Source: an uncultured Acidobacteriota bacterium
GTDB lineage: Bacteria > Acidobacteriota > UBA6911
NCBI GenBank assembly: GCA_963839475.1
Contig: CAWIVH010000019.1
Location: 202,725 to 266,724 of the forward strand
Direction of reading: 5' to 3'
DNA length: 64,000 nucleotides
The notes under the pieces were generated by a model. The model ran no database searches. It saw nothing but the letters and a program-made list of their open reading frames with translations, and was not told the origin of the DNA. Shown here one piece after another: positions 8,636 through 64,000 of the stretch; the stretch's first letter is position 1, and each line of letters begins with the position of its first letter. A program made the translations under genes and the position numbers.

Positions 8636-9054
8636 GAATCTCCTAAAGGGTTTCAATGACATCCGCCGCCCGGGATCGACCTGTTGCCGTCGTTGGTTTC
8701 CAGGTGCATTGCAGCCTGCGTTCGCTTTACAGTATCTAATCCTATAGGGATCTGCCGCCGATGCATAGAAAAGCTTATCGGGATGCCGCACAAGTCCTCA
8801 TGAGCACGGCCCCCCCGAAGCCACATCATGGACATCGCGTCTCGCGGGAAATGCATTCCCCTGGGAATGGCACGCGCGTCAAACTAGGTACTCGCATTCG
8901 TAATTACGATAACATCCGCTGGTGGGCTCCAACGATCGCACCGTCAGCCAAAATTCCTGTCCTGGTCTTCGCCACCGCCATCGGCTTCTTGAAGCCCACC
9001 AGCTCTTCGGGCGCCGGTGCCGCGGTTTCCAAGCCTGGAATGGTTCCCTTTTGA

Positions 9055-14871: not shown

Positions 14872-15254
14872 ACGATATGTCCGGATAGCCCTCTGTGGTG
14901 AAGAGCCGATGAGAAATGCGGGGCACTCTCCCTCATCGCAACGCCATTCTATCGAAAGAAGCGGGCGGATTCTACGATTCCCCGATAGCCCGGTCTGATT
15001 TCAGGGACGCAAATCCCTGCAATCGTGCCGGAGGGCGTCCTCAATCATGTTACTTTAGGATCGAATTTCAGGCGCAAGTATTTCCGGGGGCCCTTTTTTG
15101 CTATGCTGTCAAATTTGACAGTATCTCGAAACCTCCATGCCGGAGGAAGATCTGCAAGGAATTCTGCTACCGGCGCGATCCGTCCGGCATCATACAGCGA
15201 CTGATCCAGGAACGGATGGATGGCACCTGGGACGACGTAAGGAAAAACAATCGA

Positions 15255-16430
15255 ATGACAGACACAGATAAAAAAGTCGTGCTGGTCGTGGACGATGCTC
15301 CGGCCAACATCAGGGTCGTGAATGAAATACTCCACAACACTTATAAAGTCCGTATCGCGACGAACGGGGCCAAGGCATTGGAGCTCGCTGTAGCCGAGCC
15401 GTGCCCGGATCTAATCCTGCTCGATGTGGTCATGCCGGGAATAGACGGTTATGAGGTCTGCACCCGGCTGAAAGCCGACCCGGCCACGCGGGACATCCCC
15501 GTAATCTTCCTCACGGGCCAGACCGAAACCACCGATGAAACCCGGGGATTCGAAGTCGGGGCCGTGGACTACATCCACAAACCCTTCTCGCCCGCCGTGG
15601 TTGCGGCCAGAGTCCAGACGCACCTCGCCCTTCGCGAAGCGCGCGAACAACTCTCGCGGCAGCTGCAAGCCATTCGGGCCGAACTCGAGACCGCGCGGCA
15701 GATTCAGTCATCGATTCTTCCCCGCGAAATTCCCGCGATCCCGGGCCTGGATATTGCCGCCCGATATGAACCGATGAGTTCGGTGGCGGGCGACTTCTAC
15801 GACTTCATCGCCATCGACGAGAAACGAATCGGAATCCTGGTGGCGGACGTATCGGGGCATGGAATGCCGGCCGCTCTCATCGCGTCCATGCTGAAGATTG
15901 CCTTCGCCGCCCAATCGGCGCACGCAAGCGACCCGGCACGAGTGCTGTCCGGCCTGAACCAGGCTCTGTGCGGGAAGTTTCAGGGCCACTATGTGACAGC
16001 TGCTTATGCGCTGATCGACACTGAAAAACGCACGCTCTGCTACGCGGGCGCCGGGCACCCCCCGCTACTCCTGCGAGAATGTTCGTCAGGAAAAGCTCAA
16101 CGTATCGTCGAAAACGGCCTTTTCCTGGGATATTTCCCCCACGCCACCTACTCCTCGGTCGAAACTCCTTTCAAGGAAGGGGATTGGATTGCGATGTACA
16201 CGGACGGAATTACCGAAATGAGAGGAGAATCCGAAGAGGAATTCGGAGTGGACCGTCTTCAAGAGTTTATGGAGTGTCACCCCGATTCCACGGCTGCCGC
16301 CTTCGCCGACCTCCTGCTGGACCGGATGTCGCTGTGGAGCGGCCGCGCTTCCGGCCAGGATCCCGATGATGACGTTACGCTGCTGGCGGTCCATTTCAAA
16401 GCTGATGGAAAATCATTGGGGACCTGCTGA
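15255..16430 (+). CDS. response regulator receiver fused to PP2C/SpoIIE-type Ser/Thr phosphatase
   Basis: Start moved to the ATG at 15255 (MTDTDKKVVLVVDD, AGGA upstream). REC features DLILLDVVMPGIDG and a conserved K. PP2C/SpoIIE region SVAGDFYDFI..LVADVSGHGMPAAL..AGAGHPPLLL..DGITE. Confidence 0.85.
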   Translation: MTDTDKKVVLVVDDAPANIRVVNEILHNTYKVRIATNGAKALELAVAEPCPDLILLDVVMPGIDGYEVCTRLKADPATRDIPVIFLTGQTETTDETRGFEVGAVDYIHKPFSPAVVAARVQTHLALREAREQLSRQLQAIRAELETARQIQSSILPREIPAIPGLDIAARYEPMSSVAGDFYDFIAIDEKRIGILVADVSGHGMPAALIASMLKIAFAAQSAHASDPARVLSGLNQALCGKFQGHYVTAAYALIDTEKRTLCYAGAGHPPLLLRECSSGKAQRIVENGLFLGYFPHATYSSVETPFKEGDWIAMYTDGITEMRGESEEEFGVDRLQEFMECHPDSTAAAFADLLLDRMSLWSGRASGQDPDDDVTLLAVHFKADGKSLGTC

Positions 16431-33725: not shown

Positions 33726-34535
33726 GTTTCTCTCCTAAATCGTGAGCCGGCGTGCTTCGCTCGCAAACGGACCAGGCAAACGTTATATGGGATCGCAGAT
33801 CAGGAATCCCGGTTTGCCTTGCATCATCTCCGATGAGGAATTTCTCATTGAAGCATCTACCGGATTTACTCAATATAATACCATCCAAGAGAGACACAGG
33901 TGATGCGCATCATGAGTCGACGGTTCTGCGGGTTTGTTTTTGCCATTATCGTTTAAGCATAATCTCTCAAGCTCGATTCCCGTGAATAACTTCCCTCCCT
34001 TCGCGTCCTGTTTATCGGGAACAGCAATACCTATTTCAGCAACCTGCCGGAGAGTTCCTGCCGCAGCTACGCGGCTTTTTGAGAATAGAAACTTGGACTA
34101 GCGCACGGCGGGAGTCATCCACCTGCGGCAAATACAGCAAAATCAATCAGACCGCCAAACCACAAAGGCCGCAAAGGTTTTATTTATATATCTTTGCGGT
34201 CTTCGCGCCTTCGTGTTTCAATCTCTCGAGCGTTCCAAGTTTCCAGAGAGCCTCGCAGTTGCACAAGAAATATTCCTTCATCAGCGACATAATCGCACGG
34301 GCACAGCCAAAACAGCGGAGCCTGCAAGTGCGATCCATCGACCTTCTTGTCAGTCGATACCCATCGTGGGACTTGAAGATGCACTATGTCTGTGCTTGAA
34401 TTGAAATCAATCGGTCGGGACGGTGTAGGTCAGCTGGAAGAAAATTCAGAAAACTCGGGTTTCGAAGCAATTTCGAAAAGAATTTCTTCAGCCAAAGTTT
34501 CTTCATCCCAATTCCGGTGGAACAAGGACTGGTCG

Positions 34536-35519
34536 ATGGAGAAAATCGGGAAGTACCTGATTCTGGAGAAGCTGGGCCAGGGTGGTATGGGGGTGGTGTA
34601 TAAAGCGCTGGATCCCCTCATCGAGCGCGTGGTCGCGGTGAAGATGATCGTCTCGAACCTCACCGACGAGCCTGAGCTCAGAGCGCGGTTTTTTCGTGAA
34701 GGCCGCTCCGCAGGACAACTCAGCCACAAAAACATTGTGACTATTTTCGACCTGGGTGAGGAACGCGGGACTGCCTACCTGGCGATGGAGTATCTCGAAG
34801 GCGAAGACCTCCGGTCACTGATGCGCACAGGTAGCATCACCCTGGAAGAGAAGCTGCGGATTGTCAGGGAGATCTGCGAGGGGCTTTCTCATGCACACGA
34901 AAATAAGGTCATCCATAGAGACATCAAGCCAGCCAACATCTTTCTCACGAAATCGGGCCAGGTAAAAATTCTCGATTTTGGCCTGGCCCGGACCATGCAG
35001 TCGGACCTGACCAATACCGGCCAGGCTCTCGGCTCGCCAAACTACATGTCTCCCGAACAGGTGCGCGGAGAAGATCTCGACCACCGGACCGATATCTTCT
35101 CTGTGGGGGTTCTTTTTTATGAACTGCTCACGCTCCGAAAGGCCTTCCAGGGCGATTCCTTCACCTCCACCATTTTCAAAATCCTCCAGAACGATCCTGA
35201 GCCCATTGAGAATTTCAATTCCGAGATCCCCCCGGAAATCTGCGCGATAGTCTTCAGGGCCTTGGCGAAAAAGCCGGAAGACCGCTATTCCACTCTGGAT
35301 GAAATGCGGCGGGATCTCGATCGGGTGACGGGTTTGAGTACCGGTGACACCGCAATGGTCGCCGGCAATACTGCATGGGTCGAGAATGCCGGTCGCAGAA
35401 TCACGCCCGCAATCAGCCGACCAGGGCAGCCCAAGCGGGGGACCGTTATCATCCGTTTCGAGAGAGGCCCAGACGGAGATCAGTTCCGGCAGGCGGGGAA
35501 ATTCAAAGACGTTTCCTAG
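34536..35519 (+). CDS. Ser/Thr protein kinase (Hanks-type)
   Basis: Start at ATG 34536 (AAGGA upstream); the track ORF starts at 34386. Glycine loop LGQGGMGVVYKA, catalytic VAVK, HRDIKPANIFL, DFGLAR, SPNYMSPE. The frame-0 stop at 35517 comes before any TM segment. Confidence 0.85.
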   Translation: MEKIGKYLILEKLGQGGMGVVYKALDPLIERVVAVKMIVSNLTDEPELRARFFREGRSAGQLSHKNIVTIFDLGEERGTAYLAMEYLEGEDLRSLMRTGSITLEEKLRIVREICEGLSHAHENKVIHRDIKPANIFLTKSGQVKILDFGLARTMQSDLTNTGQALGSPNYMSPEQVRGEDLDHRTDIFSVGVLFYELLTLRKAFQGDSFTSTIFKILQNDPEPIENFNSEIPPEICAIVFRALAKKPEDRYSTLDEMRRDLDRVTGLSTGDTAMVAGNTAWVENAGRRITPAISRPGQPKRGTVIIRFERGPDGDQFRQAGKFKDVS

Positions 35520-38338: not shown

Positions 38339-38413
38339 CGCTGGCTGCCGAAGCGCGCCGATGCGGCATTGGGGGGCGCGAAGGATGGCCGGCAATATGC
38401 AGGAGCCGAACAG

Positions 38414-39001
38414 ATGGCAGATGCCATGGATACCTTGATTGAAGAACACCGAGTGATCGACCAACTGCTTTCTGCATTGGAAACATTTACCGATCGCCTG
38501 GGAGAGGAACCCGACCGCGATCGGGCAACAGTCCGGGATTTCGCGGGCTTTTTTTCTTACTTCGTCGATACCTGCCACCACGGCAAGGAAGAAAATTACC
38601 TGTTTCCACGCATGAATGCCTATGGCTTTTCCAGGCAGGGCGGGCCGGTATCGGCCATGCTGTCGGAACAAGGGGAAGGCCGCGATCACCTGAGCGCCTT
38701 GATAGCCATCGGTGAAGGTTCCGGGACCCTAACCTCGCAGGAGCAATCGCTGGTCCGCGGCCATGCCCTGGGCTATATCCTGCGGATACAATTGCACATG
38801 AAACGAGAGGATGAAATCCTCTTTCCGGTGGCCCGGCATTCTTTGCCGGCTTTCGTTTTGGAGGAGCTTGCAACGGATTTTGATAATTTCAGCCAAAACA
38901 TCCTGCCGCACTCCACTCACGACGCGGTACTCCGGACCGCAAAAAACCTGACCGTAAAATATCCGCCCAAGCCGAAGGGCCGCCTCCCCTTCCCTTCGTG
39001 A
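38414..39001 (+). CDS. hemerythrin-like (HHE cation-binding) domain protein
   Basis: Start at ATG 38414 (AGGAG 8 nt upstream). Iron-binding motifs EEHRVIDQLL, HHGKEENYLFP and HMKREDEILFP. Confidence 0.7.
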   Translation: MADAMDTLIEEHRVIDQLLSALETFTDRLGEEPDRDRATVRDFAGFFSYFVDTCHHGKEENYLFPRMNAYGFSRQGGPVSAMLSEQGEGRDHLSALIAIGEGSGTLTSQEQSLVRGHALGYILRIQLHMKREDEILFPVARHSLPAFVLEELATDFDNFSQNILPHSTHDAVLRTAKNLTVKYPPKPKGRLPFPS

Positions 39002-39072: not shown

Positions 39073-39999
39073 TCACGCCTGGCTGTCTATTTCCAATCCG
39101 GCGATGGGAACAGGGTGGGACCGGCCCTTGACCAGCGTTTCACCCAGGTCGTGGAATTGAAATCCGCCGGAGGCCCATTTGGCCATTTCGCGATTCAAGA
39201 TGACGGAATAGCCCATGGTTTTGGAAAGCGGTTCGAGGCGGAAAGCCACGTTGACGCTGTCTCCAACAGCCGTAAAGGACTGATGCTCGGCTGTGCCGAC
39301 ATTGCAAACCGTGGCCACGCCCATGTTCACTCCGATGCCAATGTTAAAGGTGTGTCCGGGAAATTTTTCCGTACAAGTAATCGAGAAGGTCCGTGATCTC
39401 AGGATCAAGGCTCGCGCCGCTGCCAAAGCACGGTTGACCTCCGGCGCGGGATCGGATTTGTCGGCGGCAATCCAGTATGCCATGACCGCGTCGCCGATGA
39501 ATTTGTCGACCGTCCCGCCATTCTCATCGATGAGTGCTGTTGCCTGGCGGAACCATTCATGGATCAAGGGTGAAAATTCCTGGCTCGGCAGCGCCTCACT
39601 CATGGAAGTGTAGTTGCGGACGTCCGCTACCAGGACGATCACCATCTCATTCCGAACTTCCAGTTTGGTGCCTGAACTGGTGGTGATGTACGGATTTGTC
39701 GCTTCGGCCGAGATGAGTTCAAACCGCATTTTCACACCGCCTATCTGGATCTCATCTCCGTTCTGAAGATCCCGCGGAGCCGTCATGCGCCGGCCGTTTA
39801 GCCATGTCCCGTTTGCGCTTCCGATATCGCTGAGACGATACCGCTCGCGGCCCAGGTGCCTTATTTCGGCGTGATTGCGCGATGCTTTTTGATCGTCCAG
39901 GACCAGTTTGTTGGTGGCTGAACGTCCGATCGTGAGGTGATCGCCTATTTCTATACCTTGCGCCTGCTGCTTATCCGAAGTAACAACAAGTCTGGCCAT
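39073..39999 (-). CDS. FHA domain fused to class III adenylate/guanylate cyclase
   Basis: N-terminal FHA (GRSATNKLVLDDQKASRNHAEI .. SANGTWLNG). C-terminal cyclase (MVIVLVADVRNYTSMSE .. FIGDAVMAYW .. GIGVNMGVATV). Confidence 0.85.
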   Translation of the reverse strand: MARLVVTSDKQQAQGIEIGDHLTIGRSATNKLVLDDQKASRNHAEIRHLGRERYRLSDIGSANGTWLNGRRMTAPRDLQNGDEIQIGGVKMRFELISAEATNPYITTSSGTKLEVRNEMVIVLVADVRNYTSMSEALPSQEFSPLIHEWFRQATALIDENGGTVDKFIGDAVMAYWIAADKSDPAPEVNRALAAARALILRSRTFSITCTEKFPGHTFNIGIGVNMGVATVCNVGTAEHQSFTAVGDSVNVAFRLEPLSKTMGYSVILNREMAKWASGGFQFHDLGETLVKGRSHPVPIAGLEIDSQA

Positions 40000-40552
40000 T
40001 TTTCCTGCTATTGATTGGTTGAGTTGTGCCCGATGGTTCAGCGATATCTGTTATCCTTGGCGGTTTTCCATTCCAAATTTCCGCCGCTATTCCCGGATCC
40101 CCAACCGGACCATCAGGGAAATCTGCATGGGTATATCGCATACAAGTCTAAAGCCATCCAGCCATGACGGCCGGATCCTGATTGAGTTACCAGGCCAGGC
40201 ATCCATGAATTATCCGATTCGAATATGCCGGAATCTGTGATGTCTCAAACTCACGCATGAGAGGCGCTACCCCTTATGATACACTATCTTGAAATTTGAT
40301 TTCACTATTAGATAGTAATTTATTCAATGCCGGAGTAGAATGGCCTAGGAAGATTTGCTCGGGTTAAATACCGCCTTTGAAAACAGATCGGCTCTGAATC
40401 CAGGTTATAGGCACCCGCTACGGCAGGGCTTTTTGCCCGAAGTTGTCGTTTGTGACAGCGTTTGTCAAGGAGTTGCTAGGGCCGCGTGGACATCAACCTG
40501 CCTGATGGACCAGCCGGCCGTTTTGAATCAATCCAAACGAAGGGTGGGCTCG

Positions 40553-44827: not shown

Positions 44828-45205
44828 ATGGCGAAAATACTGCTGGTCGAGGACAATGAGATGAATCGCGACATGCTGTCGCGCCGGCTGATGAAAAAGG
44901 GATACAGTGTCGTTATTGCCGTCGACGGACAGTCCGGCCTGGATCTGGGCTACTCGGAAACCCCTGATATAATCCTGATGGACATGAGCCTGCCCATCCT
45001 CGACGGGTGGGAGGCTACCCGCCGGCTGAAATCATCCCCCGAAACCCGATCGATTCCAATCATCGCACTGACGGCCCATGCCATGTCGTCAGATCGAACG
45101 AAAGCGATCGAAGCGGGCTGTGACGACTATGACACCAAGCCGGTCGATCTCCCGCGCCTGCTGGGAAAGATTGAGACCCTGCTCCATAAGGCATCTAGTT
45201 CATGA
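44828..45205 (+). CDS. single-domain response regulator (CheY-like)
   Basis: [14 protein letters not shown] .. ILMDMSLPILDG .. conserved K. Its stop overlaps the next gene's ATG (ATGA at 45202-45205). Confidence 0.85.
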   Translation: MAKILLVEDNEMNRDMLSRRLMKKGYSVVIAVDGQSGLDLGYSETPDIILMDMSLPILDGWEATRRLKSSPETRSIPIIALTAHAMSSDRTKAIEAGCDDYDTKPVDLPRLLGKIETLLHKASSS

Positions 45206-47118
45206 ATAAAGAGCCTGAAAAAAGCAATCCGGGGGCCGAGGGAGCGCGCGTCCGGCGCGCCCTGCTGGCCCATATGCGCCATGAACTCCGCACGCCGCTC
45301 AATGCGATACTCGGCTACAGCGAAATGTTGCTCGAAGATGCGGGCGGCGATGGCTGGGGCACAGTCAGGTCGGATCTCGAGAAGGTTCATGAAGCCGGAA
45401 CGCAACTTATTGCCATCGTTAACACCATCCTTGACCCGGCGAAAATCGAAGCCGGCATGATCAATCTCGAGGCTGCGGGCGATTTGATCCGGCACCAGTT
45501 GCGCACGCCGCTCGATGCCGTTATCGGCTATAGCGAGATGCTCATCGATGAGGCCGAATCGGCGGGACTGAGAGAATGCGCGGCCGACCTACAGCACATC
45601 CGGGCTGCCGGATTGAAACTGCTGGCCCTGATCGATGACATTATCCACTTTGCCGGAATCGAGACCTGGGCGGATGGATCAACGCCTCAGGTGGCAGCGG
45701 CATCCACCATGATCCAGAGCATTTTCACCCCCCCGCATTCCTCGCGACTCGAACAATCGACCGTTACCGAAATGGAACGGGGCTCACTCCTGGTGGTCGA
45801 TGATAACGAAATCAATCGCGACATTCTCTCGCGCTATCTGGAGCGCCGGGGGCATAGGGTCTCGACGGCAGCCAGCGGTCACGAAGCCTTGGATATCCTG
45901 TCCGGCCGAACTTACGATCTGATCCTGCTCGACATCATGATGCCTGGGCTGAACGGATTCGAAGTCCTCCAACAAATGAAATCCAGCCGGGAATTGAGCG
46001 GAATACCGGTAATCTTCATCAGCGCCCTGGATGACGCGCTCGGAAAAGTCCAGGCCTTCAGGACTGGAGGGGTGGATTATGTGACCAAGCCCTTCCAGGC
46101 CGATGAAGTCATCGCACGAGTGGAAAACCAGCTGAAGATCTCGCGACTGCAGAAGGATCTGGCCCGGCAAAACGAGGAGCTGATTCGGAAAAATAACGAA
46201 CTGGTTCAAGCGCATAGGCGGACTGCGCTGGTCTTTTCGGCTTTGGCCGAATCGTTGCCGGGGTCCACCCTGGATGAAAAATACCTTTTGGGGGAAATGA
46301 TCGGCACCGGAGGATTTGGCGCCGTTTACCGTGGCACCCACCTGGGATTGGACCTGCCCGTAGCTGTCAAGGTTTTCCGACCTGTCGCCGGTAACGATAC
46401 TCCGGATGCATTGGAGCGGTTTCGCCGTGAGGGAATCTCGGCCAGCCGGGTCAAACACCCCAATGCCGTCGAAATCCTGGACAACGGAATTTCTTCCAAC
46501 GGAATCGCCTACCTGGTCATGGAACTTTTACATGGGAGGACTCTGGGACAAGAAATGCTTGAGAAGCAGGTCCTTTCTCCCCGACGCACCGTCCGGATTA
46601 TCATCCCCGCGTGCCTTGCGCTGGCCGCCATTCACGAGGCTGACATCGTTCACCGGGATATCAAGCCTGAGAACATTTACCTTCACTCCACCCCTAAGGG
46701 AGAGGTGGTCAAGCTGCTCGATTTCGGCATTTCGAAGATGCTTGGAACAGAATCCGACCAGACCTTCGATAACACCACCAGGACCGGAAATGTGCTGGGC
46801 ACCCCGGCCTACATGGCGCCGGAACGATTTGAAAACAAGCCTTACGACGGCCGGGCGGATGTGTACAGCCTTGGCACCATATGTTACCGCATGCTTAGCG
46901 GCTTCCCACCCTTCCGCTCGGAGCGCGAGGATTTTTATGCGTTGGCCATCATGCATCTCCAGGCGCAGCCGCCCTCCTTGCGACAATACTTTCCTGAGAT
47001 TCCGGCGCGACTCGACAACCTGATACTCAGAACACTGGCCAAATCGCCCGTAGAGCGGCCGACGGCAGCGGAGCTGGCTGCACAATTGAGCGAACTCGAG
47101 CCTTTGCTGGAAGCCTGA
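45202..47118 (+). CDS. fusion protein: two HisKA-type phosphotransfer domains (no ATPase), receiver domain, Ser/Thr protein kinase
   Basis: H-boxes HMRHELRTPLNAILGYSEML and IRHQLRTPLDAVIGYSEML with no HATPase after them. REC (LLVVDDNEINRDIL .. LLDIMMPGLNG .. K). Coiled coil. Hanks kinase (IGTGGFGAVYRG, AVKV, HRDIKPENIYL, DFGISK, TPAYMAPE). Confidence 0.85.
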   Translation: MNKEPEKSNPGAEGARVRRALLAHMRHELRTPLNAILGYSEMLLEDAGGDGWGTVRSDLEKVHEAGTQLIAIVNTILDPAKIEAGMINLEAAGDLIRHQLRTPLDAVIGYSEMLIDEAESAGLRECAADLQHIRAAGLKLLALIDDIIHFAGIETWADGSTPQVAAASTMIQSIFTPPHSSRLEQSTVTEMERGSLLVVDDNEINRDILSRYLERRGHRVSTAASGHEALDILSGRTYDLILLDIMMPGLNGFEVLQQMKSSRELSGIPVIFISALDDALGKVQAFRTGGVDYVTKPFQADEVIARVENQLKISRLQKDLARQNEELIRKNNELVQAHRRTALVFSALAESLPGSTLDEKYLLGEMIGTGGFGAVYRGTHLGLDLPVAVKVFRPVAGNDTPDALERFRREGISASRVKHPNAVEILDNGISSNGIAYLVMELLHGRTLGQEMLEKQVLSPRRTVRIIIPACLALAAIHEADIVHRDIKPENIYLHSTPKGEVVKLLDFGISKMLGTESDQTFDNTTRTGNVLGTPAYMAPERFENKPYDGRADVYSLGTICYRMLSGFPPFRSEREDFYALAIMHLQAQPPSLRQYFPEIPARLDNLILRTLAKSPVERPTAAELAAQLSELEPLLEA

Positions 47119-54417: not shown

Positions 54418-55527
54418 TTACCGGCGAGGCCGCCGGAGTATGACGCAAGTGGTATCATCGTATCGCGGTTCGCGGCCGACAAAGGCATCCACGGAGGTCA
54501 GGATCCGCGTCAGCAAATCCGCGCTGCTTATGTCCGGGGCCGAGCCCAGGAGGCTGAGGAGCCGCAGCTCGCCGTACTCTTCCCCGCTATTGTTCTGAGC
54601 CTCAACGACGCCATCGGTAAAAATGATGAGGCGGTCGCCGGCGCTTATAATGGATTCTCCGGCGTCGTACTGGAAATTTTTGTCGATTCCCAGCGGCGGG
54701 CCTCCTGTTTCCAGGCGTTCTATCGCGCCGTTGCCGCGCATAAGCATGGGATAGTTATGTCCGGCATTGATGTAATGCAAAATACCGGAGGTCGTGTCCA
54801 GCTCCGCCAGGAATGCGGTCGTGAAGCGCAACCCGCCGAGGCTGTTCTCACAGGTGTATCGGTTCACGCTGTAAACCAGTTCGACGAGTGGAATGGGGCT
54901 TGCGGCGAGTGTGCGGAGACTGGCTTGGAAGGTGGCCATCAACAGCGCGGCGGGGACGCTTTTGCCTGCGACGTCTGCCACGACAAGCGTAAGCCGCTCC
55001 TCCTGCGGGCCTCCTGCCGGTCCCGGCCGGAGGAATACATCGTAGTAGTCTCCCGATACCGTATTCGCAGGCCGGGTCACGAAAGCGATGTCGATGCCGG
55101 GGATGGGCGGCGCTGCTTTCGGCACCAGCCATGCCTGTATCTCCCTCGCAATCTCAAGATCCCGCTTCATGGTGATGCGATCCGCGAGCTCGAGACCCAG
55201 GACTATGAGCACAAGTATCGACCCGACGATTATCGCTCCCTGCTCCTGCTGCCTCCCGGCCAAAATCAACAGCAGACCAAAAACCAGGCAGATGCGGCGT
55301 GCTGCCGATAATTCCCAGAAAAGTGCAGCCGCGATTTTCGCGATCTGCTTCCATCGCGGCAGCCGCCGGAATGCTTCCGAATCCATCTTTCGGGAGTACA
55401 CCCCATAGCTGGTCCGCGCTTCCGACGTCAGCTGCCTCCAGAGATCGCGAAGCGCCATCCCTTCTGTCAACCTGCCCCACAACCCAGAGCTTTTGCCGAA
55501 AGGATTCATAATCGATACCTCCAGCAA
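54418..55527 (-). CDS. membrane-anchored PP2C/SpoIIE-type Ser/Thr phosphatase (RsbU-like)
   Basis: Two N-terminal TM helices (IAAALFWELSAARRICLVFGLLLILAG, AIIVGSILVLIVLGL). PP2C/SpoIIE motifs TVSGDYYDVF .. LVVADVAGKSVPAAL .. INAGHNYPML .. FTDGVVE. Confidence 0.8.
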   Translation of the reverse strand: MLEVSIMNPFGKSSGLWGRLTEGMALRDLWRQLTSEARTSYGVYSRKMDSEAFRRLPRWKQIAKIAAALFWELSAARRICLVFGLLLILAGRQQEQGAIIVGSILVLIVLGLELADRITMKRDLEIAREIQAWLVPKAAPPIPGIDIAFVTRPANTVSGDYYDVFLRPGPAGGPQEERLTLVVADVAGKSVPAALLMATFQASLRTLAASPIPLVELVYSVNRYTCENSLGGLRFTTAFLAELDTTSGILHYINAGHNYPMLMRGNGAIERLETGGPPLGIDKNFQYDAGESIISAGDRLIIFTDGVVEAQNNSGEEYGELRLLSLLGSAPDISSADLLTRILTSVDAFVGREPRYDDTTCVILRRPRR

Positions 55528-55640: not shown

Positions 55641-58600
55641 TCAATATTTCAGACCGAAACCGTAGGGGAAAAGGGGATCATAATCCGGATCCCCGACATT
55701 GATGGGAACCTGCGACAGACTTCTGGGCCAGCTGCAGGGGAGCTTTCCAGCGGGGCTGTAATCGCCGAATAGAACATCAGTTACGCCCTGGCCTTCGGTT
55801 CCCGGAAGCCAGGCAGCGATAAGGGCATCCGCTTTGTCAAGGGCGGAACCGAGGATCAGAGGCCGACCCGAAACCAGAATAACCACCAGCGGAATTCCGC
55901 TTTGCCTGATATTGTCGATGACGGCGGTATCCTGCGCGGAAAGGCTCAGCGTGGCAACTATCGCCCGGGCCTTCGGCATAGGGTGGTTCCCCGATGATGG
56001 CGATGGCGACATCGGCTCCTGCGGCATTGGTTCCATCGGGGGAGTGAACCACTTGGGTGGAGACCGCGACCGACTGCCGGATAGCTTGCAGAATCGTGGT
56101 ACCGGTGGTGATGTTCCCCGCACTGCCCTGCCAGGAAATAGTCCACCCTCCGCACTGGCGCCCGATGTCGTCCGCGCTCAGCCCCGACACCATTACCCGG
56201 CGCAGGTTCTTGGAAAGAGGCAGGAGGCCGTCCCGGTTCTTCAGCAGCACCAGGGACTGGCGTACCGCCTCGCGAGCCGCTTCCCGGTGTTCCGCCGAAC
56301 CCAGGCGGGTCCGGTAGCTGTGATCACTGAAGGGCGACCGGTCGAAAAGCCCCGCGGCAAATTTCACCCGGAGGATTCTCCGGACGGCGTCGTCGACGCG
56401 CGACACCGGGATCTCGCCGGCCAGCACGAGGCTTTTGAGGGTGACGAAAAATTCCTGGTGCCGCTCCGGCACCATCCCCATGTCAATCCCCGCGTTGATG
56501 GCAGCTTTTACCTGGGCGCGATAGCTCCCGCCGGGGAGTTGGTCGATGGCGGCCCAATCCGATATCAGGAAACCCTCGAAGCCCAGCTCGCCTTTGAGCA
56601 CATCGGTAAGGAGGTATCGGTTGCCCGTCATTTTTTGCCCGTTCCAGCTGCTGAAGGAAACCATGATGGTCCCGACTCCGGCCTGGACGGCCGCCCGATA
56701 CCCGGGGAGGTGGACGCGCCTCAGTGTCGCTTCATCCATCTGAGTATCCCCCTGGTCTATCGGGTTGCCGGTGCCCCAACGGGTGCCCCCGTCGCCGAGA
56801 TAATGCTTGGCGCAAGCCACAATGCCCGACGGGTCGGCCAGACTAGACCTTTGATAGCCGAGAACAGCGGCCCGCCCCATTGCCTGAACGAGATCCGGGT
56901 CTTCTCCAAATCCCTCGTAGGTGCGGCCCCAACGTTCATCGCGCGGCACGGCTACGACCGGAGAGAAGGTCCAGTTCATGCCCGTCGCCCTCACTTCGCT
57001 TGCGGTGATTCGCCCGGCAATCTCCGCAAGGGCGGGATTGCGTGAAGCGCCCAGGCCGATGTTGTGGGGAAAAATCACCGCGCCGCGGACGTTATTGTGG
57101 CCATGCACCGCATCGATTCCATAGAGGATCGGGATCTTCAGCCTGGTTTTTAACGCCTGGGACTGAAAATCGTCATACATGTCCGCCCAGGCGTCGACCT
57201 GGTTGGATGCCGGTCCGGAACCGCCGCCGCTCAGGACAGATCCGATGAAATAGTTTTGGATATCGCCTTCGCGGAGCGAGCCGCGCTCGGCCTGGGTCAT
57301 TTGTCCAATCTTTTCATCCAGCGTCATTCGGCCGATCAGGTCGTCCACTTTAGGGTCGAATGCAGAGAGGGGCCTGGCATCCGGCCGATAGGGGGCTATG
57401 GGCAGAGAGGTATATTTTGATCCGCGACAGAGGAGGGACAGGCCAGCTACCGGAGCGGGGATATCCTCCCCGAACCTGGCGTCCCAGCTCGTTATTTCAA
57501 GTCTGCCGACGAAGTCGCGGGCAGCAATTCCCGGCACCTGGGGAAAGAGTTCATAAATAAACTGCCCCAGGCCGGTAAATGCGGAGAGGTGCAGAACCCT
57601 CTCTGCGACCGGATCCTGTTCACGAATCGAAACCTTCCCCGTTCCCGATCCTTCCTGACCCGAGGAGTCGAAGTACAGACGAAGGCGAACGACCCGGTTG
57701 TCTGCCGAAGCGTTACTCAACGCGAGGCCGGTGAGTATCTCCCCCTTCTCCCGCACGTAAAAGAGGCTCTTCGCCTCTGTCGAGAGACCGGGGACTCCGA
57801 TCTCAGATACAAAACTGCCGTTGTTCTTTTCACGGATGGTGAGGCCTGCGCCGCTTCCCAGCGGCCTGTCGGACGTGATTTTGGCCCATCCGATAGTTCC
57901 CGGATTGGATCTCCCCCCGGTGATCAGTTCCGCGGCACCGAGGGCGGGAATGGTCACCGTAAATCGGCTTGCGGTCGTTGGCCCGATGGTCACGGCCATG
58001 GGGGTGCCGTCGTTGGTAAAGAGTTCCAATGTGGCTGCCTGGCTCTCTTCGGAGTTGTTGAAGATCCAGAATGCAGTCTGCAGGCGCACGTCGCCCAGCG
58101 GCCCGTCACCAATCCGGGGGAAAACAAGATCGCGGGCAGTCTGACCGGACGCAGGGGGCGGCACGCTCGGCAGGGAGGTGTAGTTGGCGCCCCGGGAGCG
58201 AAGGGCGACCAGGGAAATGGGGAGATCGGAAGATAGGACCAGTACGCCGCTGAAATCCCGCAGGTCAGCCTGGCCAAAGGTTTCCGTCACATACTCCGCC
58301 TTCTGTGCGAGGGCCGAGAGGACCTCCGTTTTCGATGCTACCAGGCTCCCGTTCAACGACCTGAGCTCGAACAGGAGATTGGCGTTTCTGCCCGGATCCG
58401 GATTGCACAGGGCGAAGGCGGAGCTGTTGCCCCGGGTGTTTTCCGCCAGGATCATGAGCCGGTAGGCCGGCGGCGAATTCCCTATCCCCACCTCGGATTG
58501 GAAAATTCCTTTGTCGTCGGTAACAGTGAAGGTGGCAAAACCGCTCAACTCGGCATCCGCAACCACCTTGACCCAGCCTGTCTTCAAGGGGCCTGTGCCA

Positions 58601-58962
58601 TCGGTTTCGAAGCGCAACGCCTGCCCGGCCCCCAGGGCGAAACTGAAACTGTCCGCCCTTCCGAGGCTGGTGCCCAATGGCAGCGGAATGCCTGTGTTGC
58701 CATAAATCTGGAGCAACCCTGCGGCCGATCGTTCCGTGTGATTGATGAGGAGGACGCTGGAGCGGTAAGCGATTCCTCCGCTCGAGCCGTTGGCGATCTG
58801 GGGGAAAATCAGTGCCGTGCCCGACGCGGCTGCCGGGGCCGATTGAGCCGAGCTGGCAATGTCGGCACCGGGATGGCCCGATCCCGGGGATGGGACCGGA
58901 CTCCATGGAAAAAGAACTCCTAAAAACAGCGACAAAATAGCAACCACAGCCCACTTTTTCAT
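55641..58962 (-). pseudogene. glycoside hydrolase family 3 (beta-glucosidase-like) with ~500-aa N-terminal uncharacterised beta-rich domain; frameshift near 55960
   Basis: Track ORF 55837..58962 carries the GH3 catalytic N-domain ([12 protein letters not shown] .. [14 protein letters not shown] .. [20 protein letters not shown]). After ..[12 protein letters not shown] its last 38 codons are junk. The GH3 C-terminal domain ([32 protein letters not shown] .. [26 protein letters not shown]) continues in track ORF 55641..56123 in another frame. A single-nt indel at ~55960 separates them. Confidence 0.75.
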
Positions 58963-59296: not shown

Positions 59297-60601
59297 TCAA
59301 TGGGTCGCGCAGGTCAGGCAGGGATCGAAGAGCCTCACGCAACGGGCGATCATCTCGTGGCCCGCGGCTGAAATCTCGTCGCCATCGAGGAAATCATCCG
59401 CAAGGTCGCGTATGGCCAGATTGATATAAGCATTGTTGAACTGGGTTGCGACAAACAGTTTGATCGATTCCACCATCCCCCGGTTGATTGTATAGCTGTG
59501 CAGCAGGATTCCGCGGGGAGCCTCCACAACGCCGATCCCTTTGCCGCTTACGCTGAGATCCACCTCGGTCTTCATGGGACGTGAAAGATCAATTTCCTCC
59601 AGCAGCTTCAGGATGGTTTTTGCCGAACAGAAGATCTCGAGAAGCCGGCAGATGTCAAAGTCGTCAATCGAAAGAGACTCGGTATCTCGCAAGCGATGGG
59701 TGATCTCGTATCCCTTGAGATCAGGGTCGTCAAGCACACCGTGCTTCCTGAAAAGCCGGGAAAGCGGCCCGACAAGAACGATGCCGGCGGGAAACCCGAG
59801 GGAAGACAGATAGGGAAGCTTTGCGAATGACCAATCCACTCGCATTTCGGACATGTTGTCCTCAAAACTGTCGGCGGTGAAGCTGCAGGTCTGCTGCCCC
59901 CTGTTGTCGAAGGTCCTGAAAGCCCTCTCCTCCCCGGTTTCATCGAAAGTCAGGAAATTCGTCGGATGCGCCTTCGGGAATCCAATGAGGTGGGGTTGCC
60001 TTGAACGTCCTTCAAAAATGACGAGCTCCTGCAAGGCCTCTGTCTTTATCTTCAATGCGATGTTGCGAATCTCGTCCAGGTCGGTTGCCGTTGGAATGGT
60101 CAGATAACTCCCGACACCCATGGCAACCGGATGGACGGCCCGTTTGCAGAGCACCTCGAGAATGCGGTTGCCGGCCTTGCGCCAGGCGAAAGCCTTGGCC
60201 GCCACCTCGGGGTGGCTTTGCATCATATCGAATATCCCGTTGGTAACGCCGAGCTGATCCGGAAGGGTCAGGAAGAAATAGCTCAGAGAATGGCTTGCAA
60301 TGGTCTCTCCCAGCAGGGCTATTTCCCGCAGCTTGGTCACGTCTTCCGGGACCTTTATCCCCACGGCGTTTTCCACCGCGCTGAATCCGGCAACCTGATG
60401 AGCGGTGCAACACAGGCCGCAGATCCGGGAGACGATTTGAGGCGCACAATCCGCCTGCCTGCCCTGAACTATTTTTTCAAACCCGCGAAAGTCCATGACT
60501 GAAAAATGGGCGGTCTTCACGCGGCCATGATCCACTTCCAGGTGGATGTCCGCGTTCCCCTCGATGCGCGTGGCTTTATTCAGTGTGATGATCTTGCCCA
60601 T
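59297..60601 (-). CDS. [NiFe]-hydrogenase large subunit (no C-terminal protease-cleaved extension)
   Basis: N-terminal RIEGN (variant of RxEGH; His replaced by Asn) and RICGLCCTAHQVA. C-terminal DPCLTCATH followed directly by the stop. 434 aa. Starts 1 nt after the small-subunit stop. Confidence 0.85.
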   Translation of the reverse strand: MGKIITLNKATRIEGNADIHLEVDHGRVKTAHFSVMDFRGFEKIVQGRQADCAPQIVSRICGLCCTAHQVAGFSAVENAVGIKVPEDVTKLREIALLGETIASHSLSYFFLTLPDQLGVTNGIFDMMQSHPEVAAKAFAWRKAGNRILEVLCKRAVHPVAMGVGSYLTIPTATDLDEIRNIALKIKTEALQELVIFEGRSRQPHLIGFPKAHPTNFLTFDETGEERAFRTFDNRGQQTCSFTADSFEDNMSEMRVDWSFAKLPYLSSLGFPAGIVLVGPLSRLFRKHGVLDDPDLKGYEITHRLRDTESLSIDDFDICRLLEIFCSAKTILKLLEEIDLSRPMKTEVDLSVSGKGIGVVEAPRGILLHSYTINRGMVESIKLFVATQFNNAYINLAIRDLADDFLDGDEISAAGHEMIARCVRLFDPCLTCATH

Positions 60602-61981
60602 TTACCGGTACCTCGTGGCGCTCGCGGAAGCCTCGTGATCAAAATCAAACAGCGCATGGCCCTGCCGCTTGAGCACCCGGACCCGTTCCCGGGTTGGCGC
60701 CTCCTCAACCTTGCATCGCAGGCTCAATCCTTTGGAGAAAACTTCTTCATAGTAGTCTCCGGCAGCGATTTTCTTCACCACGGGCATGGACGGGCCTCGA
60801 CATCCCCAGCAGGGCATCCCGTTAATGGGGCAGGGAGCGCCGCATCCGCCCTTCGTCACAAAGCCCATGCAGGCTGCACCCAAGGAGGTAAGGCATTTGC
60901 CCGGGTCCGCACCGGCAATCGGCGACATGTGGAAAGAACCCGCCACATCCTTGGACGCTTTTCTCGTGCACTCGGCGCAGACGATGGCCTTGCCTTTGCC
61001 TGCCTGCTCCGTCATGAGTTCCGTGATCAGCTGCAAAAGCAATTCAGGATTCGCTGGACATCCGGGGAGAAAGTAATCGACCTTGGCAAAAGTGGAGATT
61101 CGGTGGGCCTGTCTCAGGAGCGCCACCTTTCCGTGCTTCTGGTAGGTGGCGTCGCGGTCTACGCCGGCCTGGCCTGACAGATAATACGAGAATGCATCGA
61201 CCGTATTGCCGTAAGTTTCCGCAATCAGTTCCTCGGGCTCAAACCGATTGGCTTCCCCTGGGATGCCACCATACGCCGCACAGGTTCCCCAGGCCACCAA
61301 ATAGCGGCTCTTGGCACGCGCCTCTTCCAGGACCTGAACATCATCCCGCAGCCTGACAAGCCCATCGACGATGGCAACATCGGCTTCCGAAAGGTGCGCG
61401 TTGTCCATGAGCATGGGGCAGTAGACAATTTTGGTGTATTGGAAGAGTTTCTCGAGCAACTGGTCGTCGAGGAGCACAGCGGAGCACCCGGCACAGGTGG
61501 ACAATGACACCAGCGATATCTTGATCTTCTCCTTTCTCAACACAGGGCGCCATGACATCAGCTGAGCAGCTTCAGAATGATTCGCGGGGCTCGCCAGGAT
61601 GGCCTGCTGCTCTTTGAGCATCGCGATGAGCGTCCTGGTAATGTGCAGGGCGATTTCCGGTCTGGCATTTATGAGATCGTGCAATTCGGATTTCTTGATT
61701 CGCGCCAGCAGCGTCTCCGACCCGGCAACGGCGGCGGCGCTTCTCGGCGAATCGGAAAGGATCGCCATTTCTCCGAAAAATCCACCGGGCTGCAGGATGC
61801 GGATCTCGCGCCTGTCTTCCCCTGCGCCCTGAAATATGCGCACGTCCCCTTTCAGGAGGATGTACATTTCATCGCCCGGATCCCCCTCGTTGAAAATGAC
61901 CTCTCCCGGCTGGAAGGATACGAGGCTGGCCGCGATCCCACTCCGAGGACTCCGTTTTGCCCTCGGGTTCATTAGCTGCAA
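60602..61981 (-). CDS. cyclic-nucleotide-binding domain fused to [NiFe]-hydrogenase small subunit (NuoB-like fold)
   Basis: N-terminal cNMP-binding domain with the phosphate-binding cassette FGEMAILSDSPRSAA. Residues ~150-459: proximal-cluster ligands LSTCAGCS, GTCAAYGGIP and PGCPANPE, then a Cys-rich medial/distal cluster region (CAECTRK .. CMGFVTKGGCGAPCPINGMPCWGCRGP). Its start overlaps the upstream gene's end by 10 nt. Confidence 0.8.
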   Translation of the reverse strand: MQLMNPRAKRSPRSGIAASLVSFQPGEVIFNEGDPGDEMYILLKGDVRIFQGAGEDRREIRILQPGGFFGEMAILSDSPRSAAAVAGSETLLARIKKSELHDLINARPEIALHITRTLIAMLKEQQAILASPANHSEAAQLMSWRPVLRKEKIKISLVSLSTCAGCSAVLLDDQLLEKLFQYTKIVYCPMLMDNAHLSEADVAIVDGLVRLRDDVQVLEEARAKSRYLVAWGTCAAYGGIPGEANRFEPEELIAETYGNTVDAFSYYLSGQAGVDRDATYQKHGKVALLRQAHRISTFAKVDYFLPGCPANPELLLQLITELMTEQAGKGKAIVCAECTRKASKDVAGSFHMSPIAGADPGKCLTSLGAACMGFVTKGGCGAPCPINGMPCWGCRGPSMPVVKKIAAGDYYEEVFSKGLSLRCKVEEAPTRERVRVLKRQGHALFDFDHEASASATRYR

Positions 61982-62445
61982 TGGCGGAAACTGATGCCGG
62001 GTCGCCTGTTACCGGTGGCGGGGACAGGCTGTGGGTCTTCGGGCTGAGGAGCGGAATCGTCCATGGATTCATCGGCAGAGCTCCGGCGAGCGGCCTCGGC
62101 GGCTTTTTCAACCGCTTTGATCCTGACGATCAGGGCTCTTATAAAATGAAGAAAAATGGAAGGATCTTTTCGCCCCCTTTCGATCAGGTTTTCTTTGGTG
62201 ATGGCCAGGAGGCGCGAACGTTGAATGGCCCTGCAGGTTGCCGACCTGGGTTCATCGCGGATAATGGCCATTTCGCCGAAAAAGTCGCCTTTCCCCAGGA
62301 TCGCCAGCACTTCCTCCTTATCACCTGCCCGCCGCGATACCTCGATGGCCCCGGACTGGATGATGTACATTTCATGTCCGGGCTGGCCCTGCTCAAAAAT
62401 CACCGCGTTTCGTTCATAGACGGAGCCGAAAATTTCATTTTCCAT
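61972..62445 (-). CDS. stand-alone cyclic-nucleotide-binding (cNMP) domain protein
   Basis: GDFFGEMAIIRDEPRSATCRA phosphate-binding cassette. Paralogous to the N-terminal domain of the small-subunit fusion. Confidence 0.75.
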   Translation of the reverse strand: MENEIFGSVYERNAVIFEQGQPGHEMYIIQSGAIEVSRRAGDKEEVLAILGKGDFFGEMAIIRDEPRSATCRAIQRSRLLAITKENLIERGRKDPSIFLHFIRALIVRIKAVEKAAEAARRSSADESMDDSAPQPEDPQPVPATGNRRPGISFRHCS

Positions 62446-62557
62446 AGACGTGCCTCTTTGTTTCCGGACCGCACGGGCCGCAATGCCAAACGAACCGCAA
62501 AGTTCTCCAAGACCGCGAAGGTATTATTGATTAATCTTGGCGGCCTTCGCGGTTCAA

Positions 62558-63547
62558 TCAAATGCCGGCGGGCATGACGGTCGCGCTGGATCCCTCCTGG
62601 CGCTCGGCTGCGAGGAATTCGAGCCCCAGCACATTTCCTACGCGCACGATGTCTCCCGGGCGGAGGGGTACTTCCTCGCCTTTAATCAGGGTGCGATCGT
62701 TGACCGTGAGCGGAGCACTGGAAACGGCCCGGAGCATGAAACCGTTTGTGCCGCGCCGGAGTTCGAAGTGCCAGCGGCTGATCTGAAGGGTTTGCTGCTC
62801 GTCCTTGCATTGGAGCACGATGTCGTTGGCGGGCAAGCCGTCTTTTTCCTTCAGCCGTCCGAAGGTGATGATGTCCTGTTCGGGGAGTCTCTGCTCTTCC
62901 CCCGTATCGAGGCGCACCAGGATCGGGAAGATTTTCTGGTCCCGCCATTCCAGGGTTGCAAGATCGACCGGATGCTCGAAGCCTTTTACCGAGACCGGCA
63001 TCAGCATGCGGCATTTGAGCCGGAAATGCAGATCCGTAAAAGCAAGGAATGCGGCCTTGCTCAGCCGTATCTCCCCCGAGGCTGAGGTCGACGTGATGCG
63101 CGCGCAGAAATTTGCGGCATCGCCTGTAACCTGGATCCCGTCCGTCAGGACCGGGCCGAAGTGAATGCCGATCCGTACCGCGAGCTGGTGTTCCCGGGCG
63201 CGGGTGCTGTTTTCCGCCGAGATCAGCTGGAGGAGCTCGATCATGGCGCCGGCGGCTTTGTCGACGGTCGGGAAACAGAGGAAAGCACCGTCGCCCGCCG
63301 TGTCGATGATCCTGCCCTCATGCCCCTGGATGCAGTGATTCAGCAGGTCGAGATGCCGCTGCTGCAGCTGTCTTCCCGCTTCGTTGCCGAAGCGCGCAAA
63401 GTAGGGTGTGGATCCGACGACGTCGGAAAACGCCAGGGCGATGCGCTGTTCGAAACGCCGTATCAGCGCCGCCGACAGCATGGTCTGGAGGCGGATGATC
63501 TCCGTCATGCTGAGCGCATTGCAGAGGTTTTCAAAATCAGGTTGCAT
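62558..63547 (-). CDS. class III adenylate/guanylate cyclase with C-terminal FHA domain
   Basis: Cyclase motifs IALAFSDVVGSTPYF .. IDTAGDGAFLCF .. GDAANFCARI. C-terminal FHA (ITFGRLKEKDG .. SRWHFELRR .. LTVNDRTL). First gene of the hydrogenase-containing operon. Confidence 0.85.
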   Translation of the reverse strand: MQPDFENLCNALSMTEIIRLQTMLSAALIRRFEQRIALAFSDVVGSTPYFARFGNEAGRQLQQRHLDLLNHCIQGHEGRIIDTAGDGAFLCFPTVDKAAGAMIELLQLISAENSTRAREHQLAVRIGIHFGPVLTDGIQVTGDAANFCARITSTSASGEIRLSKAAFLAFTDLHFRLKCRMLMPVSVKGFEHPVDLATLEWRDQKIFPILVRLDTGEEQRLPEQDIITFGRLKEKDGLPANDIVLQCKDEQQTLQISRWHFELRRGTNGFMLRAVSSAPLTVNDRTLIKGEEVPLRPGDIVRVGNVLGLEFLAAERQEGSSATVMPAGI

Positions 63548-64000
63548 CGAAGCCTCAAAAGAGAAAATTAGGGATTTTTCGCGCAGGGCATGCGCGTCAA
63601 GCCAAGCCGCATTACCTGAGCGTAGATGCGGATATCTCTGCGCGCTCTGCGATACATTAGATGCGCTGATCGGATACGAATACTGAAGAACCTAATCTAC
63701 TGATATTGCAAAAAATTCTCCAGCAAAATTGACGGAGTCGAAATCGAAGCCTCTCCCGTTCCATCTTTTGCTCTTCGGAAATTTGATGCTCTTAAAGGAT
63801 TGAACCGCGAAAGCGCGAAGGTCACAAGGATCAAAAAAACAATACCTTTGCATTCTTGATCGCGATTGTCGGTATGGTTTACGGAAAGATTCCAGGCTGT
63901 AACCCATTGTGACGGAAGCGTTTAATCAAATTCGGCGGCTCCTGGCGTCAAGTCCTCTTACGATCCTGCGAGGAACTTCGACACCAAAAAATCGAATATC

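Follow-up and report, generated by a model that had tools for sequence, protein, structure and literature searches.

The locus described here occupies positions 59297-63547 on the minus strand of a 64,000-nt stretch of an uncultured Acidobacteriota genome (contig CAWIVH010000019.1; this whole stretch is called the window below, and all coordinates are positions in it). It encodes the two subunits of a [NiFe] hydrogenase, the smaller of which is associated with domains predicted to bind cyclic nucleotide monophosphates (cNMP), next to a class III nucleotide cyclase with an FHA domain (Table 1). The sequence-only reading of this DNA had proposed four packed minus-strand open reading frames (ORFs), and their positions proved exact when the sequence was re-read. 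The ORF in which a cyclic-nucleotide-binding (CNB) domain is fused to the hydrogenase small subunit spans 60602-61981 and yields 459 amino acids (aa) when begun at a TTG codon; public annotation takes the ATG at 61972 and gives 456 aa (P0001). The domain content assigned to all four ORFs was upheld by Pfam and NCBIfam, with Pfam scores of 50 bits for Guanylate_cyc and 37 bits for FHA in the cyclase gene, 89 bits for cNMP_binding in the 157-aa ORF, 86 bits for cNMP_binding and 83.5 bits for Oxidored_q6 in the fusion ORF, and 101 bits for NiFeSe_Hases in the large subunit.

Table 1. Features of the hydrogenase locus, in window positions
Feature	Position	Strand	Remarks
Class III nucleotide cyclase with C-terminal FHA domain, 329 aa	62558-63547	-	Pfam Guanylate_cyc at residues 34-189, FHA at residues 227-304
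Spacer of 112 nt between the cyclase gene and the hydrogenase genes	62446-62557	-	AAGAGG 8-13 nt ahead of the ATG at 62445
First CNB domain (CNB-A) and linker, annotated as a 157-aa protein	61972-62445	-	In relatives, the N-terminus of the small-subunit protein
Frame-change site that splits the small-subunit gene	61972-62010	-	In the non-conserved inter-domain linker
Second CNB domain (CNB-B), followed in the same ORF by an MvhG-like [NiFe] small subunit (three [4Fe-4S] sites)	60602-61972	-	Pfam cNMP_binding at residues 21-105, Oxidored_q6 at residues 163-322
[NiFe] large subunit, 434 aa, group-3c-like	59297-60601	-	No C-terminal extension; RIEGN replaces RIEGH

The spacing of the genes was likewise as first described. 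The gap from the cyclase stop codon to the start of the 157-aa ORF is 112-113 nt (113 nt in the sequence-only reading), and the small- and large-subunit genes are directly adjacent, with TAAATG at the junction. The overlap between the 157-aa ORF and the fusion ORF, given earlier as 10 nt, has that length from the TTG at 61981 and is 1 nt (TAATG) from the ATG at 61972. The cyclase-FHA gene is the probable first gene of the unit. The cyclase, CNB-A, and large-subunit genes each have a GAGG-type ribosome-binding site ahead of the start codon, whereas no Shine-Dalgarno motif was found ahead of the downstream start, that of CNB-B. Scanning 58.8-64 kb for promoters and terminators gave counts at or under the shuffle expectation and nothing convincing, including in the 112-nt spacer, and the scan is therefore uninformative on co-transcription. 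The ~450 nt located 5' of the cyclase gene (63548-64000) have a GC content of 46%, against ~58-60% in the surrounding sequence, contain no convincing ORF, and are likely to be a promoter or regulatory region of the unit. The reported absence of a maturation protease gene and of a small subunit with a Tat signal was also borne out: none of the 42 window ORFs scanned matched hydrogenase-maturation (hyp) or endopeptidase families, and the small subunit cannot bear a Tat signal because its N-terminus is occupied by a cNMP-binding domain.

In terms of gene number, the unit has to be redrawn. The 157-aa ORF had been presented as a stand-alone cNMP-binding protein and hence as a separate component, but comparison with relatives identifies it as the detached first CNB domain of the small-subunit protein, because the ~610-aa proteins of the relatives start with a sequence 75% identical to it (in P0002, 606 aa, over residues 1-110). 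With the fusion protein as query, >300 clusters at 90% identity were matched; PF00027 and PF01058 occur together in every one of the 120 listed, nearly all of which are 590-650 aa long. The median length is 612 aa; among the 120 best listed matches, only 3 fall short of 520 aa. The architecture of the family, in one chain, is CNB-A, linker, CNB-B, and small subunit. Three-frame translation of the window showed that the downstream frame is open from 12 codons ahead of the ATG at 61972 and that one base added between ~62005 and 61975, for example in a CCC run, produces a joined ORF of ~613 aa. An assembly indel is a plausible cause of the split, because the neighbouring GH3 glycosidase gene is likewise frameshifted; alternatively, the split may be genuine, with coupled re-initiation at TAATG. 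The only other contig found to bear the large-subunit gene is 2.1 kb long and ends before the linker; sequencing run ERR10755939 contains this gene. Whichever the origin of the frame change, the supposed four-gene operon is better read as three genes, since the CNB-A ORF belongs to the small-subunit gene. The GH3 gene (1041 aa, 55641-58962, minus strand) lies 3-6 kb from the CNB split, with Glyco_hydro_3_C profile positions 1-86 in the ORF at 55837-58962 and positions 92-200 in the ORF at 55641-56123. In a metagenome-assembled genome (MAG) of the Thermodesulfovibrionales (L028, 8039-8260 and 10001-12724), ~2 kb separate the first CNB domain from the remaining cassette downstream of it, pointing to an insertion or to another type of split.

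These features bear on a reading confined to this genome, according to which the copy is decaying or mis-assembled, the cyclase adjoins it by coincidence, and the tight packing is an artefact of annotating across a frameshift. We consider this improbable. The frame change in the linker, the downstream ORF without a ribosome-binding site, the second frameshift in the Glyco_hydro_3_C domain, and the rarity of short proteins among the best listed matches are all in keeping with decay, but every functional residue is kept in both halves, the TAATG junction permits coupled re-initiation, and a sequencing indel would mean that the real gene is intact. The part of this reading that concerns the cyclase is taken up below with the gene neighbourhoods.

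A scan of species-representative genomes, a set that lacks the genome of the window, yielded about 35 full-length loci, from Chloroflexota/Anaerolineae, Thermodesulfovibrionales and other Nitrospirota, many Desulfobacterota, and one Acidobacteriota MAG. A cultured carrier is Desulfosarcina widdelii PP31 (NZ_AP021875.1, ~3,503,805-3,508,383), whose cassette adjoins an FHA-cyclase gene. The large-subunit gene lies directly 3' of the fusion gene in every complete locus, with 44-58% identity, and the nearest relatives, on metagenome contigs, show 65-69% identity. When all ORFs of 34 loci were clustered at two stringencies, recurrence was limited to the hydrogenase pair and the shadow ORFs antisense to it. 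A larger conserved operon was thus ruled out, and of the proposed four-gene order only the hydrogenase pair is conserved in relatives; genes for MvhD, Hdr, a diaphorase, a cytochrome, or a protease are not conserved neighbours at these loci. The closest relative of the window cassette (L001, 69-71% identity) has an Oxidored_FMN/Pyr_redox_2 flavoprotein and a LUD-domain protein as neighbours (7817-9895 and 13244-13897) and no cyclase.

Searching 1.84 billion representatives, clustered at 50% identity, with the small-subunit part gave ~20 clusters with scores of 237-315 bits, nearly all of them fused, and the next full-length unfused small subunits scored at most 149 bits. On the basis of this gap in the scores, the fusion family is a discrete clade. 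It had been asked of the architecture whether it is already a characterised, common family: it is common (>300 clusters at 90% identity and ~20 at 50%), but no description of it as a characterised family was found in the open-access literature searched. Other combinations with the small subunit were also detected. P0131 (726 aa) consists of FHA, two cNMP_binding domains, and the small subunit, and P0203 (409 aa) of EAD2 and the small subunit. A separate family, with at least 41 clusters of ~610 aa each from Desulfobacterales and Planctomycetota, has a Ser/Thr protein kinase fused to an MvhG-like small subunit (e.g., P0246; L084, 7001-10275; L085, 3189-10776). At the loci of these kinase fusions, the flanking genes encode an MvhD(FlpD)-polyferredoxin and a large subunit of canonical type, with RxEGH and a C-terminal extension of 28-30 residues, and in L085 an FHA-GAF-cyclase is encoded two genes upstream of the kinase-fused hydrogenase.

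The large subunit contains the motifs RICGLCCTAH, FRGFE, EAPRGILLH, and a terminal DPCLTCATH, and the four Ni-Fe ligand cysteines, whose absence would have spoken against the sequence-only reading, are kept in the window protein and in 32 of 32 relatives. In all 32 relatives, RxCGLCxxxH is present and DPCL[ST]CAT[H/Q] forms the last residues, with a single sequence ending in Gln instead of His; none has a C-terminal extension, and the window protein stops at His434. The catalytic residues in FRGFE and EAPRGxxxH are invariant or nearly so in the family. All 33 sequences (the 32 relatives and the window protein) read R[IV]EGN, compared with RIEGH in MvhA. The claim of a complete hydrogenase small subunit was also confirmed. 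Against solved structures, its best match is MvhG (5odc_E, 163 bits), with which 12 Fe-S cysteines are in register; these are invariant in 117 relatives save for one position at 116 of 117, and 13 cysteines in all are invariant or nearly so. The alternative that the Cys-rich protein is a NuoB of complex I was rejected, because NuoB models score at most 30 bits, compared with 173 bits for VhuG in NCBIfam. Since both the catalytic residues and the Fe-S ligands are conserved, the hydrogenase module looks chemically competent.

The nearest relatives of both subunits appear to be the Mvh/Vhu hydrogenases (group 3c), although this subgroup placement rests on best matches far below the model cut-offs: the large subunit scores 190 bits (9sw2_F) and 183 bits (5odc_F) against solved MvhA structures, and 189 bits for VhuA and 175 bits for ShyA (3b) in NCBIfam, where the equivalog cut-off is 800. 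Like Mvh/Vhu (5ODC, 9SW2), the cassette enzyme is predicted to be cytoplasmic and has the same L1 and L2 motifs and three [4Fe-4S] sites in the small subunit. In contrast, neither MvhD nor HdrABC is encoded at the cassette (34 loci), the 24 residues that MvhA has past its terminal motif are missing from the cassette large subunit, with no protease gene in the window, RxEGN replaces RxEGH, and two cNMP-binding domains are added at the N-terminus. These comparisons characterize it as a probably group-3c-derived hydrogenase that departs from group 3c in its partners (MvhD/HdrABC) and in C-terminal processing.

The solved structures closest to the CNB part are protein kinase G (PKG) and the regulatory subunits of protein kinase A (PKA). 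The phosphate-binding cassette reads FGEMAIIRDEPRSAT in CNB-A and FGEMAILSDSPRSAA in CNB-B, and the pattern G-E...R-[ST]-A-[TS] is present in both domains. Among 117 fusion proteins, the Gly, Glu, and Arg of the CNB-A cassette are each found in 117, the Ala in 104, and the Thr in 105, and in CNB-B the Gly is found in 117, the Glu in 112, and the Arg in 105; residues contacting the cyclic phosphate and ribose are thus almost invariant. Because these cassette residues are canonical and nearly invariant, both domains are predicted to bind cyclic nucleotide. As in the PKA regulatory subunit and PKG, a pair of successive canonical CNB domains precedes a catalytic module or controls it; the differences are that the module here is a metallo-hydrogenase subunit and that no dimerisation/docking region or inhibitor sequence is recognisable.

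A CNB fold need not imply a cyclic nucleotide as ligand, and the domains might instead have NAD(P)H or a different nucleotide as their ligand and serve as a cofactor site or for activation, a possibility that we regard as very improbable. Its model is HoxI, a CNB-domain protein of the group-3d operon and a cNMP-fold subunit of the NAD-reducing soluble hydrogenase of Cupriavidus necator, which is said to bind NADPH (PMC12319191, citing Burgdorf 2005). The CNB-A domain of the window is 25% identical to HoxI (E = 5e-12), and a CNB-domain gene also occurs within actinobacterial group-3b clusters, so that in each case a protein of the cNMP-binding fold is dedicated to a group-3 [NiFe] hydrogenase. 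However, HoxI is a separate 167-aa subunit of an enzyme with the HoxFU diaphorase, whereas the CNB domains of the cassette are part of the small-subunit chain, and the loci encode neither a flavin nor a diaphorase subunit that could couple NAD(P)H with one-electron Fe-S clusters. The HoxI phosphate-binding cassette is degenerate (PHSLS, compared with PRSAT in the fusion family), and the group-3b-associated CNB-like protein of Rhodococcus has lost the Glu and the RSA motif (G-W...RWQF); these two proteins lack the phosphate-binding Arg/Ala or Glu, unlike the fusion family, which keeps both pockets. The accumulation of cyclase, phosphodiesterase, and cNMP-effector genes around the cassette would also be left unexplained.

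This accumulation was evident in the neighbourhoods of the related loci. An iterative profile search of 39 related loci showed that 14 of them have a class III cyclase no more than 10 kb from the cassette. The architectures of these cyclases are unrelated to one another: an FHA-cyclase lies 459 nt downstream of the cassette in D. widdelii (L025), a GAF-cyclase 189 nt downstream in L011, a REC-cyclase 419 nt downstream in L018, a cyclase-AAA-TPR protein 77 nt downstream in L017, a divergent CHASE2-cyclase 185 nt upstream in L029, and a GAF-PAS-cyclase-MBL protein after an extra CNB gene in L078. A Pfam census that took in, from 35 genomes, the 100 genes no more than 2 kb from the cassette ranked cNMP_binding first (10) and Guanylate_cyc second (8), followed by Sulfate_transp, Response_reg, and GAF (6 each); Lactamase_B_2 (5) and the class-II cAMP phosphodiesterase family PDEase_II (3) also recurred, and the FlpD and Hdr families did not recur. 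The CNB proteins encoded nearby are effectors in their own right, namely SulP-STAS-CNB transporters, CNB-Ser/Thr kinases, and MMPL-CNB-GGDEF proteins. The zone within 2 kb of the cassette makes up 27% of the flank bases, yet it holds 8 of 15 cyclases (P = 0.025), 11 of 15 CNB genes (P = 2e-4; one of these near matches, in L028, may be the displaced part of the cassette itself), and 19 of 30 of both kinds combined (P about 3e-5), P values that ignore the shared ancestry of some loci. The control loci, which were themselves picked for CNB genes, contained 6 cyclase matches in 581 kb including the window, and 4 when the target cyclase and L038, which is probably cassette-related, are left out. 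This is the pattern expected if the cassette is one effector inside cNMP-signalling gene islands.

The messenger may not be the same throughout the family. At the position of the adenine-specifying Lys, Glu or Asp is found in around half of the nearby cyclases (L007, L009, L010, L012, L019, L025, and L078), and in the CHASE2 cyclases of L007 and L025 the Glu is paired with Gly in the hmmalign alignment. An acidic residue at that Lys position is typical of guanylate cyclases. The cyclases with this residue may therefore be guanylate cyclases, and cyclic GMP (cGMP) may be the messenger in some lineages.

The cyclase in the window has Ma1120 cyclase as its best solved relative and, in alignment with it, keeps the metal-binding Asp residues (FSD and AGDG) and the Asn/Arg pair (AANFCAR). 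Its FHA domain plausibly ties it to the Ser/Thr kinases (34386-35519 and 45202-47118) and SpoIIE/PP2C phosphatases (14916-16430 and 54418-55527) of the window. With such genes at hand, the adjacency of cyclase and cassette could be coincidental, as the reading confined to this genome has it: the window holds another FHA-cyclase (39076-40050) and many kinases and phosphatases, and the cyclase-FHA gene next to the cassette lacks orthologous conservation. Against coincidence, in 35 other genomes cNMP-signalling genes are concentrated by the cassette above their flank-wide density, and the D. widdelii cassette also adjoins an FHA-cyclase. The second class III cyclase of the window (39076-40050, minus strand) consists of FHA and then cyclase, the order also found in the cyclase adjoining the D. 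widdelii cassette; it has a Lys/Thr pair and lies by a hemerythrin-domain gene (38369-39001, plus strand). The kinase at 45202-47118 (plus strand) is an unusual hybrid of HisKA, receiver, and Ser/Thr kinase domains without a HATPase_c match, and a HAMP-HisKA-HATPase-REC-REC kinase and a single-domain receiver are encoded upstream of it.

The reading that we favour, at about even odds (a probability of roughly 0.5), is that the cassette encodes a cytoplasmic two-subunit [NiFe] hydrogenase of Mvh/Vhu ancestry that acts as a cNMP effector through the CNB tandem on its small subunit. In this scheme, the class III cyclase encoded alongside would make the cyclic nucleotide, and its FHA domain would place it under the influence of the Ser/Thr kinases and PP2C phosphatases encoded in the region. 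Its product would bind both CNB domains of the small subunit, and the tandem would turn the attached hydrogenase module on or off, acting either on catalysis or on how a redox partner reaches the distal Fe-S cluster. The second messenger would thus be the input and H2 chemistry the output. What we infer here comprises cNMP binding, the direction of control, the identity of the nucleotide (cyclic AMP, cAMP, or cGMP), the electron partner, and the choice between a bulk catalyst and a low-turnover sensor. The effector reading is preferred because CNB domains are receivers, because the order from CNB tandem to active module matches that of other cNMP effectors, some of which adjoin the cassette, and because such effectors lie nearby. 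The proposed wiring of a hydrogenase to cAMP/cGMP signalling was strengthened by the canonical, conserved pockets and by the cNMP-signalling neighbours in 35 genomes, both of which are features of sequence and gene order.

Several points weigh against this reading. The copy in the window is split and might be defective. The purine-specifying pair Lys/Asp of the window cyclase is replaced by Asp/Gln in the hmmalign alignment, which fits neither the Lys/Asp of ATP-specific enzymes nor the Glu/Cys-type pair for GTP. In tblastn searches, no ortholog of the cyclase-FHA gene was found at other cassette loci, so that this gene, initially counted as a member of the unit, is not a conserved one. The absence of a conserved electron-transfer partner from the 34 loci leaves the metabolic role unexplained. 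The shared ancestry of some loci and the choice of the control loci, both described above, limit the neighbourhood statistics. The AlphaFold2 model of P0002, in which the CNB domains are confident and the linker disordered, leaves the contacts between the CNB domains and the hydrogenase undefined (predicted template modelling score, pTM, 0.49). Finally, a sensor would account for the absence of the C-terminal extension and the loss of the His of RxEGH no less well than a regulated enzyme would.

A sensor would reverse the flow of information. In such a regulatory hydrogenase, the Ni-Fe module would be the input, and the redox state of the Fe-S clusters would alter the CNB tandem; H2 could change its affinity for cNMP, with buffering or release of the nucleotide, or its binding to a partner, as the PKA regulatory subunit holds the kinase. 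In that case, H2 would act on cNMP and Ser/Thr-phosphorylation signalling instead of being under its control. We regard this reading, the main rival, as somewhat unlikely. It is supported by a resemblance to the group 2b sensors HoxBC/HupUV. Among the C. necator sequences, HoxC reads RVEGD and stops without an extension, but HoxG and HoxH read RIEGH and have extensions of 15 and 24 residues, respectively; thus, in HoxC and in the 32 relatives and the window protein alike, the extension is absent and the His of RxEGH is replaced, by Asp in the former and by Asn in the latter. Both HoxBC/HupUV and the cassette are set among signalling genes without an energy-conserving partner, and no protease, MvhD, Hdr, diaphorase, or cytochrome partner is found at the cassette loci. 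These HoxC-like traits point toward a sensor over a bulk catalyst. However, the cassette has its affinity with group 3 and not group 2, the final His of its L1 motif is kept where HoxC has Gln, there is no conserved histidine-kinase partner, and the signalling domain lies on the small subunit itself and is a cNMP receiver. The extension is also missing in CooH- and Ech-type hydrogenases, which are non-sensory. Moreover, the characterised CNB domains are all receivers, and a transmitter domain is absent from the cassette.

The other fusions of MvhG-like small subunits, with the Ser/Thr kinase, with FHA and two CNB domains, or with EAD2, add to the case for sensing, in that the hydrogenase of the kinase fusion occupies the place that a sensor domain usually has in bacterial Ser/Thr kinases and that an FHA-GAF-cyclase is encoded close to one of these hydrogenases. 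Yet the kinase-fused relatives are otherwise ordinary Mvh types, with RxEGH, the extension, and MvhD-polyferredoxin, so that the presence of a fused signalling domain is not enough to imply sensing. A broader proposal, which we advance tentatively as possible but short of probable, is that the cassette is the first member to be recognised of an undescribed class of cytoplasmic signalling [NiFe] hydrogenases, in which MvhG-like small subunits are joined to second-messenger or phosphorylation modules and of which the CNB type is a protease-independent, HoxC-like H2 sensor. The modules of this class may be the CNB tandem, FHA with the CNB tandem, the Ser/Thr kinase, and EAD2. The CNB type may exchange information with cAMP, perhaps with cGMP, because half of the associated cyclases have Glu or Asp at the Lys position, and, via FHA, with Ser/Thr phosphorylation.

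In the HydDB scheme, the sensory [NiFe] groups are the histidine-kinase-linked 2b and the putative diguanylate-cyclase-linked 2c, group 3 comprises cofactor-coupled enzymes, and no cNMP-linked class is listed (PMC5037454). Group 2c and the sensory [FeFe] groups C and D resemble the cassette in that a hydrogenase is coupled to second-messenger or phosphorylation signalling (PMC5037454), but group 2c belongs to another lineage and relies on a neighbouring enzyme with cyclic di-GMP (c-di-GMP) as the messenger, whereas the cassette has a predicted cAMP/cGMP link by a fused receiver. No description of a fusion between a cNMP domain and a hydrogenase small subunit was found in the open-access full-text literature searched. 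The earlier statement that no described hydrogenase is wired to cAMP/cGMP through a fused domain therefore stands for that literature, with the qualification that HoxI and the actinobacterial group-3b gene, both with degenerate pockets, are partial precedents. As far as that literature shows, the design is undescribed; it is widespread and not unique to the window.

H2 is a central currency of anaerobic communities, and the established or proposed sensory links of [NiFe] enzymes are only those to two-component kinases (2b) and c-di-GMP enzymes (2c). The family described here would define a further hydrogenase subgroup, spread across sulfate reducers, Nitrospirota, Chloroflexota, and Acidobacteriota, which automatic annotation hides under names such as "cyclic nucleotide-binding protein" or "F420-non-reducing hydrogenase small subunit". 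Such an enzyme would also be a natural example of a hydrogenase switched by a ligand, and the idea is directly testable in the cultured host D. widdelii PP31, because this isolate carries the cassette by an FHA-cyclase. A hydrogenase with built-in cAMP/cGMP receivers would show that classical second messengers act directly on H2 chemistry, and the broader signalling class, if real, would give anaerobes a new route by which to perceive or gate H2.

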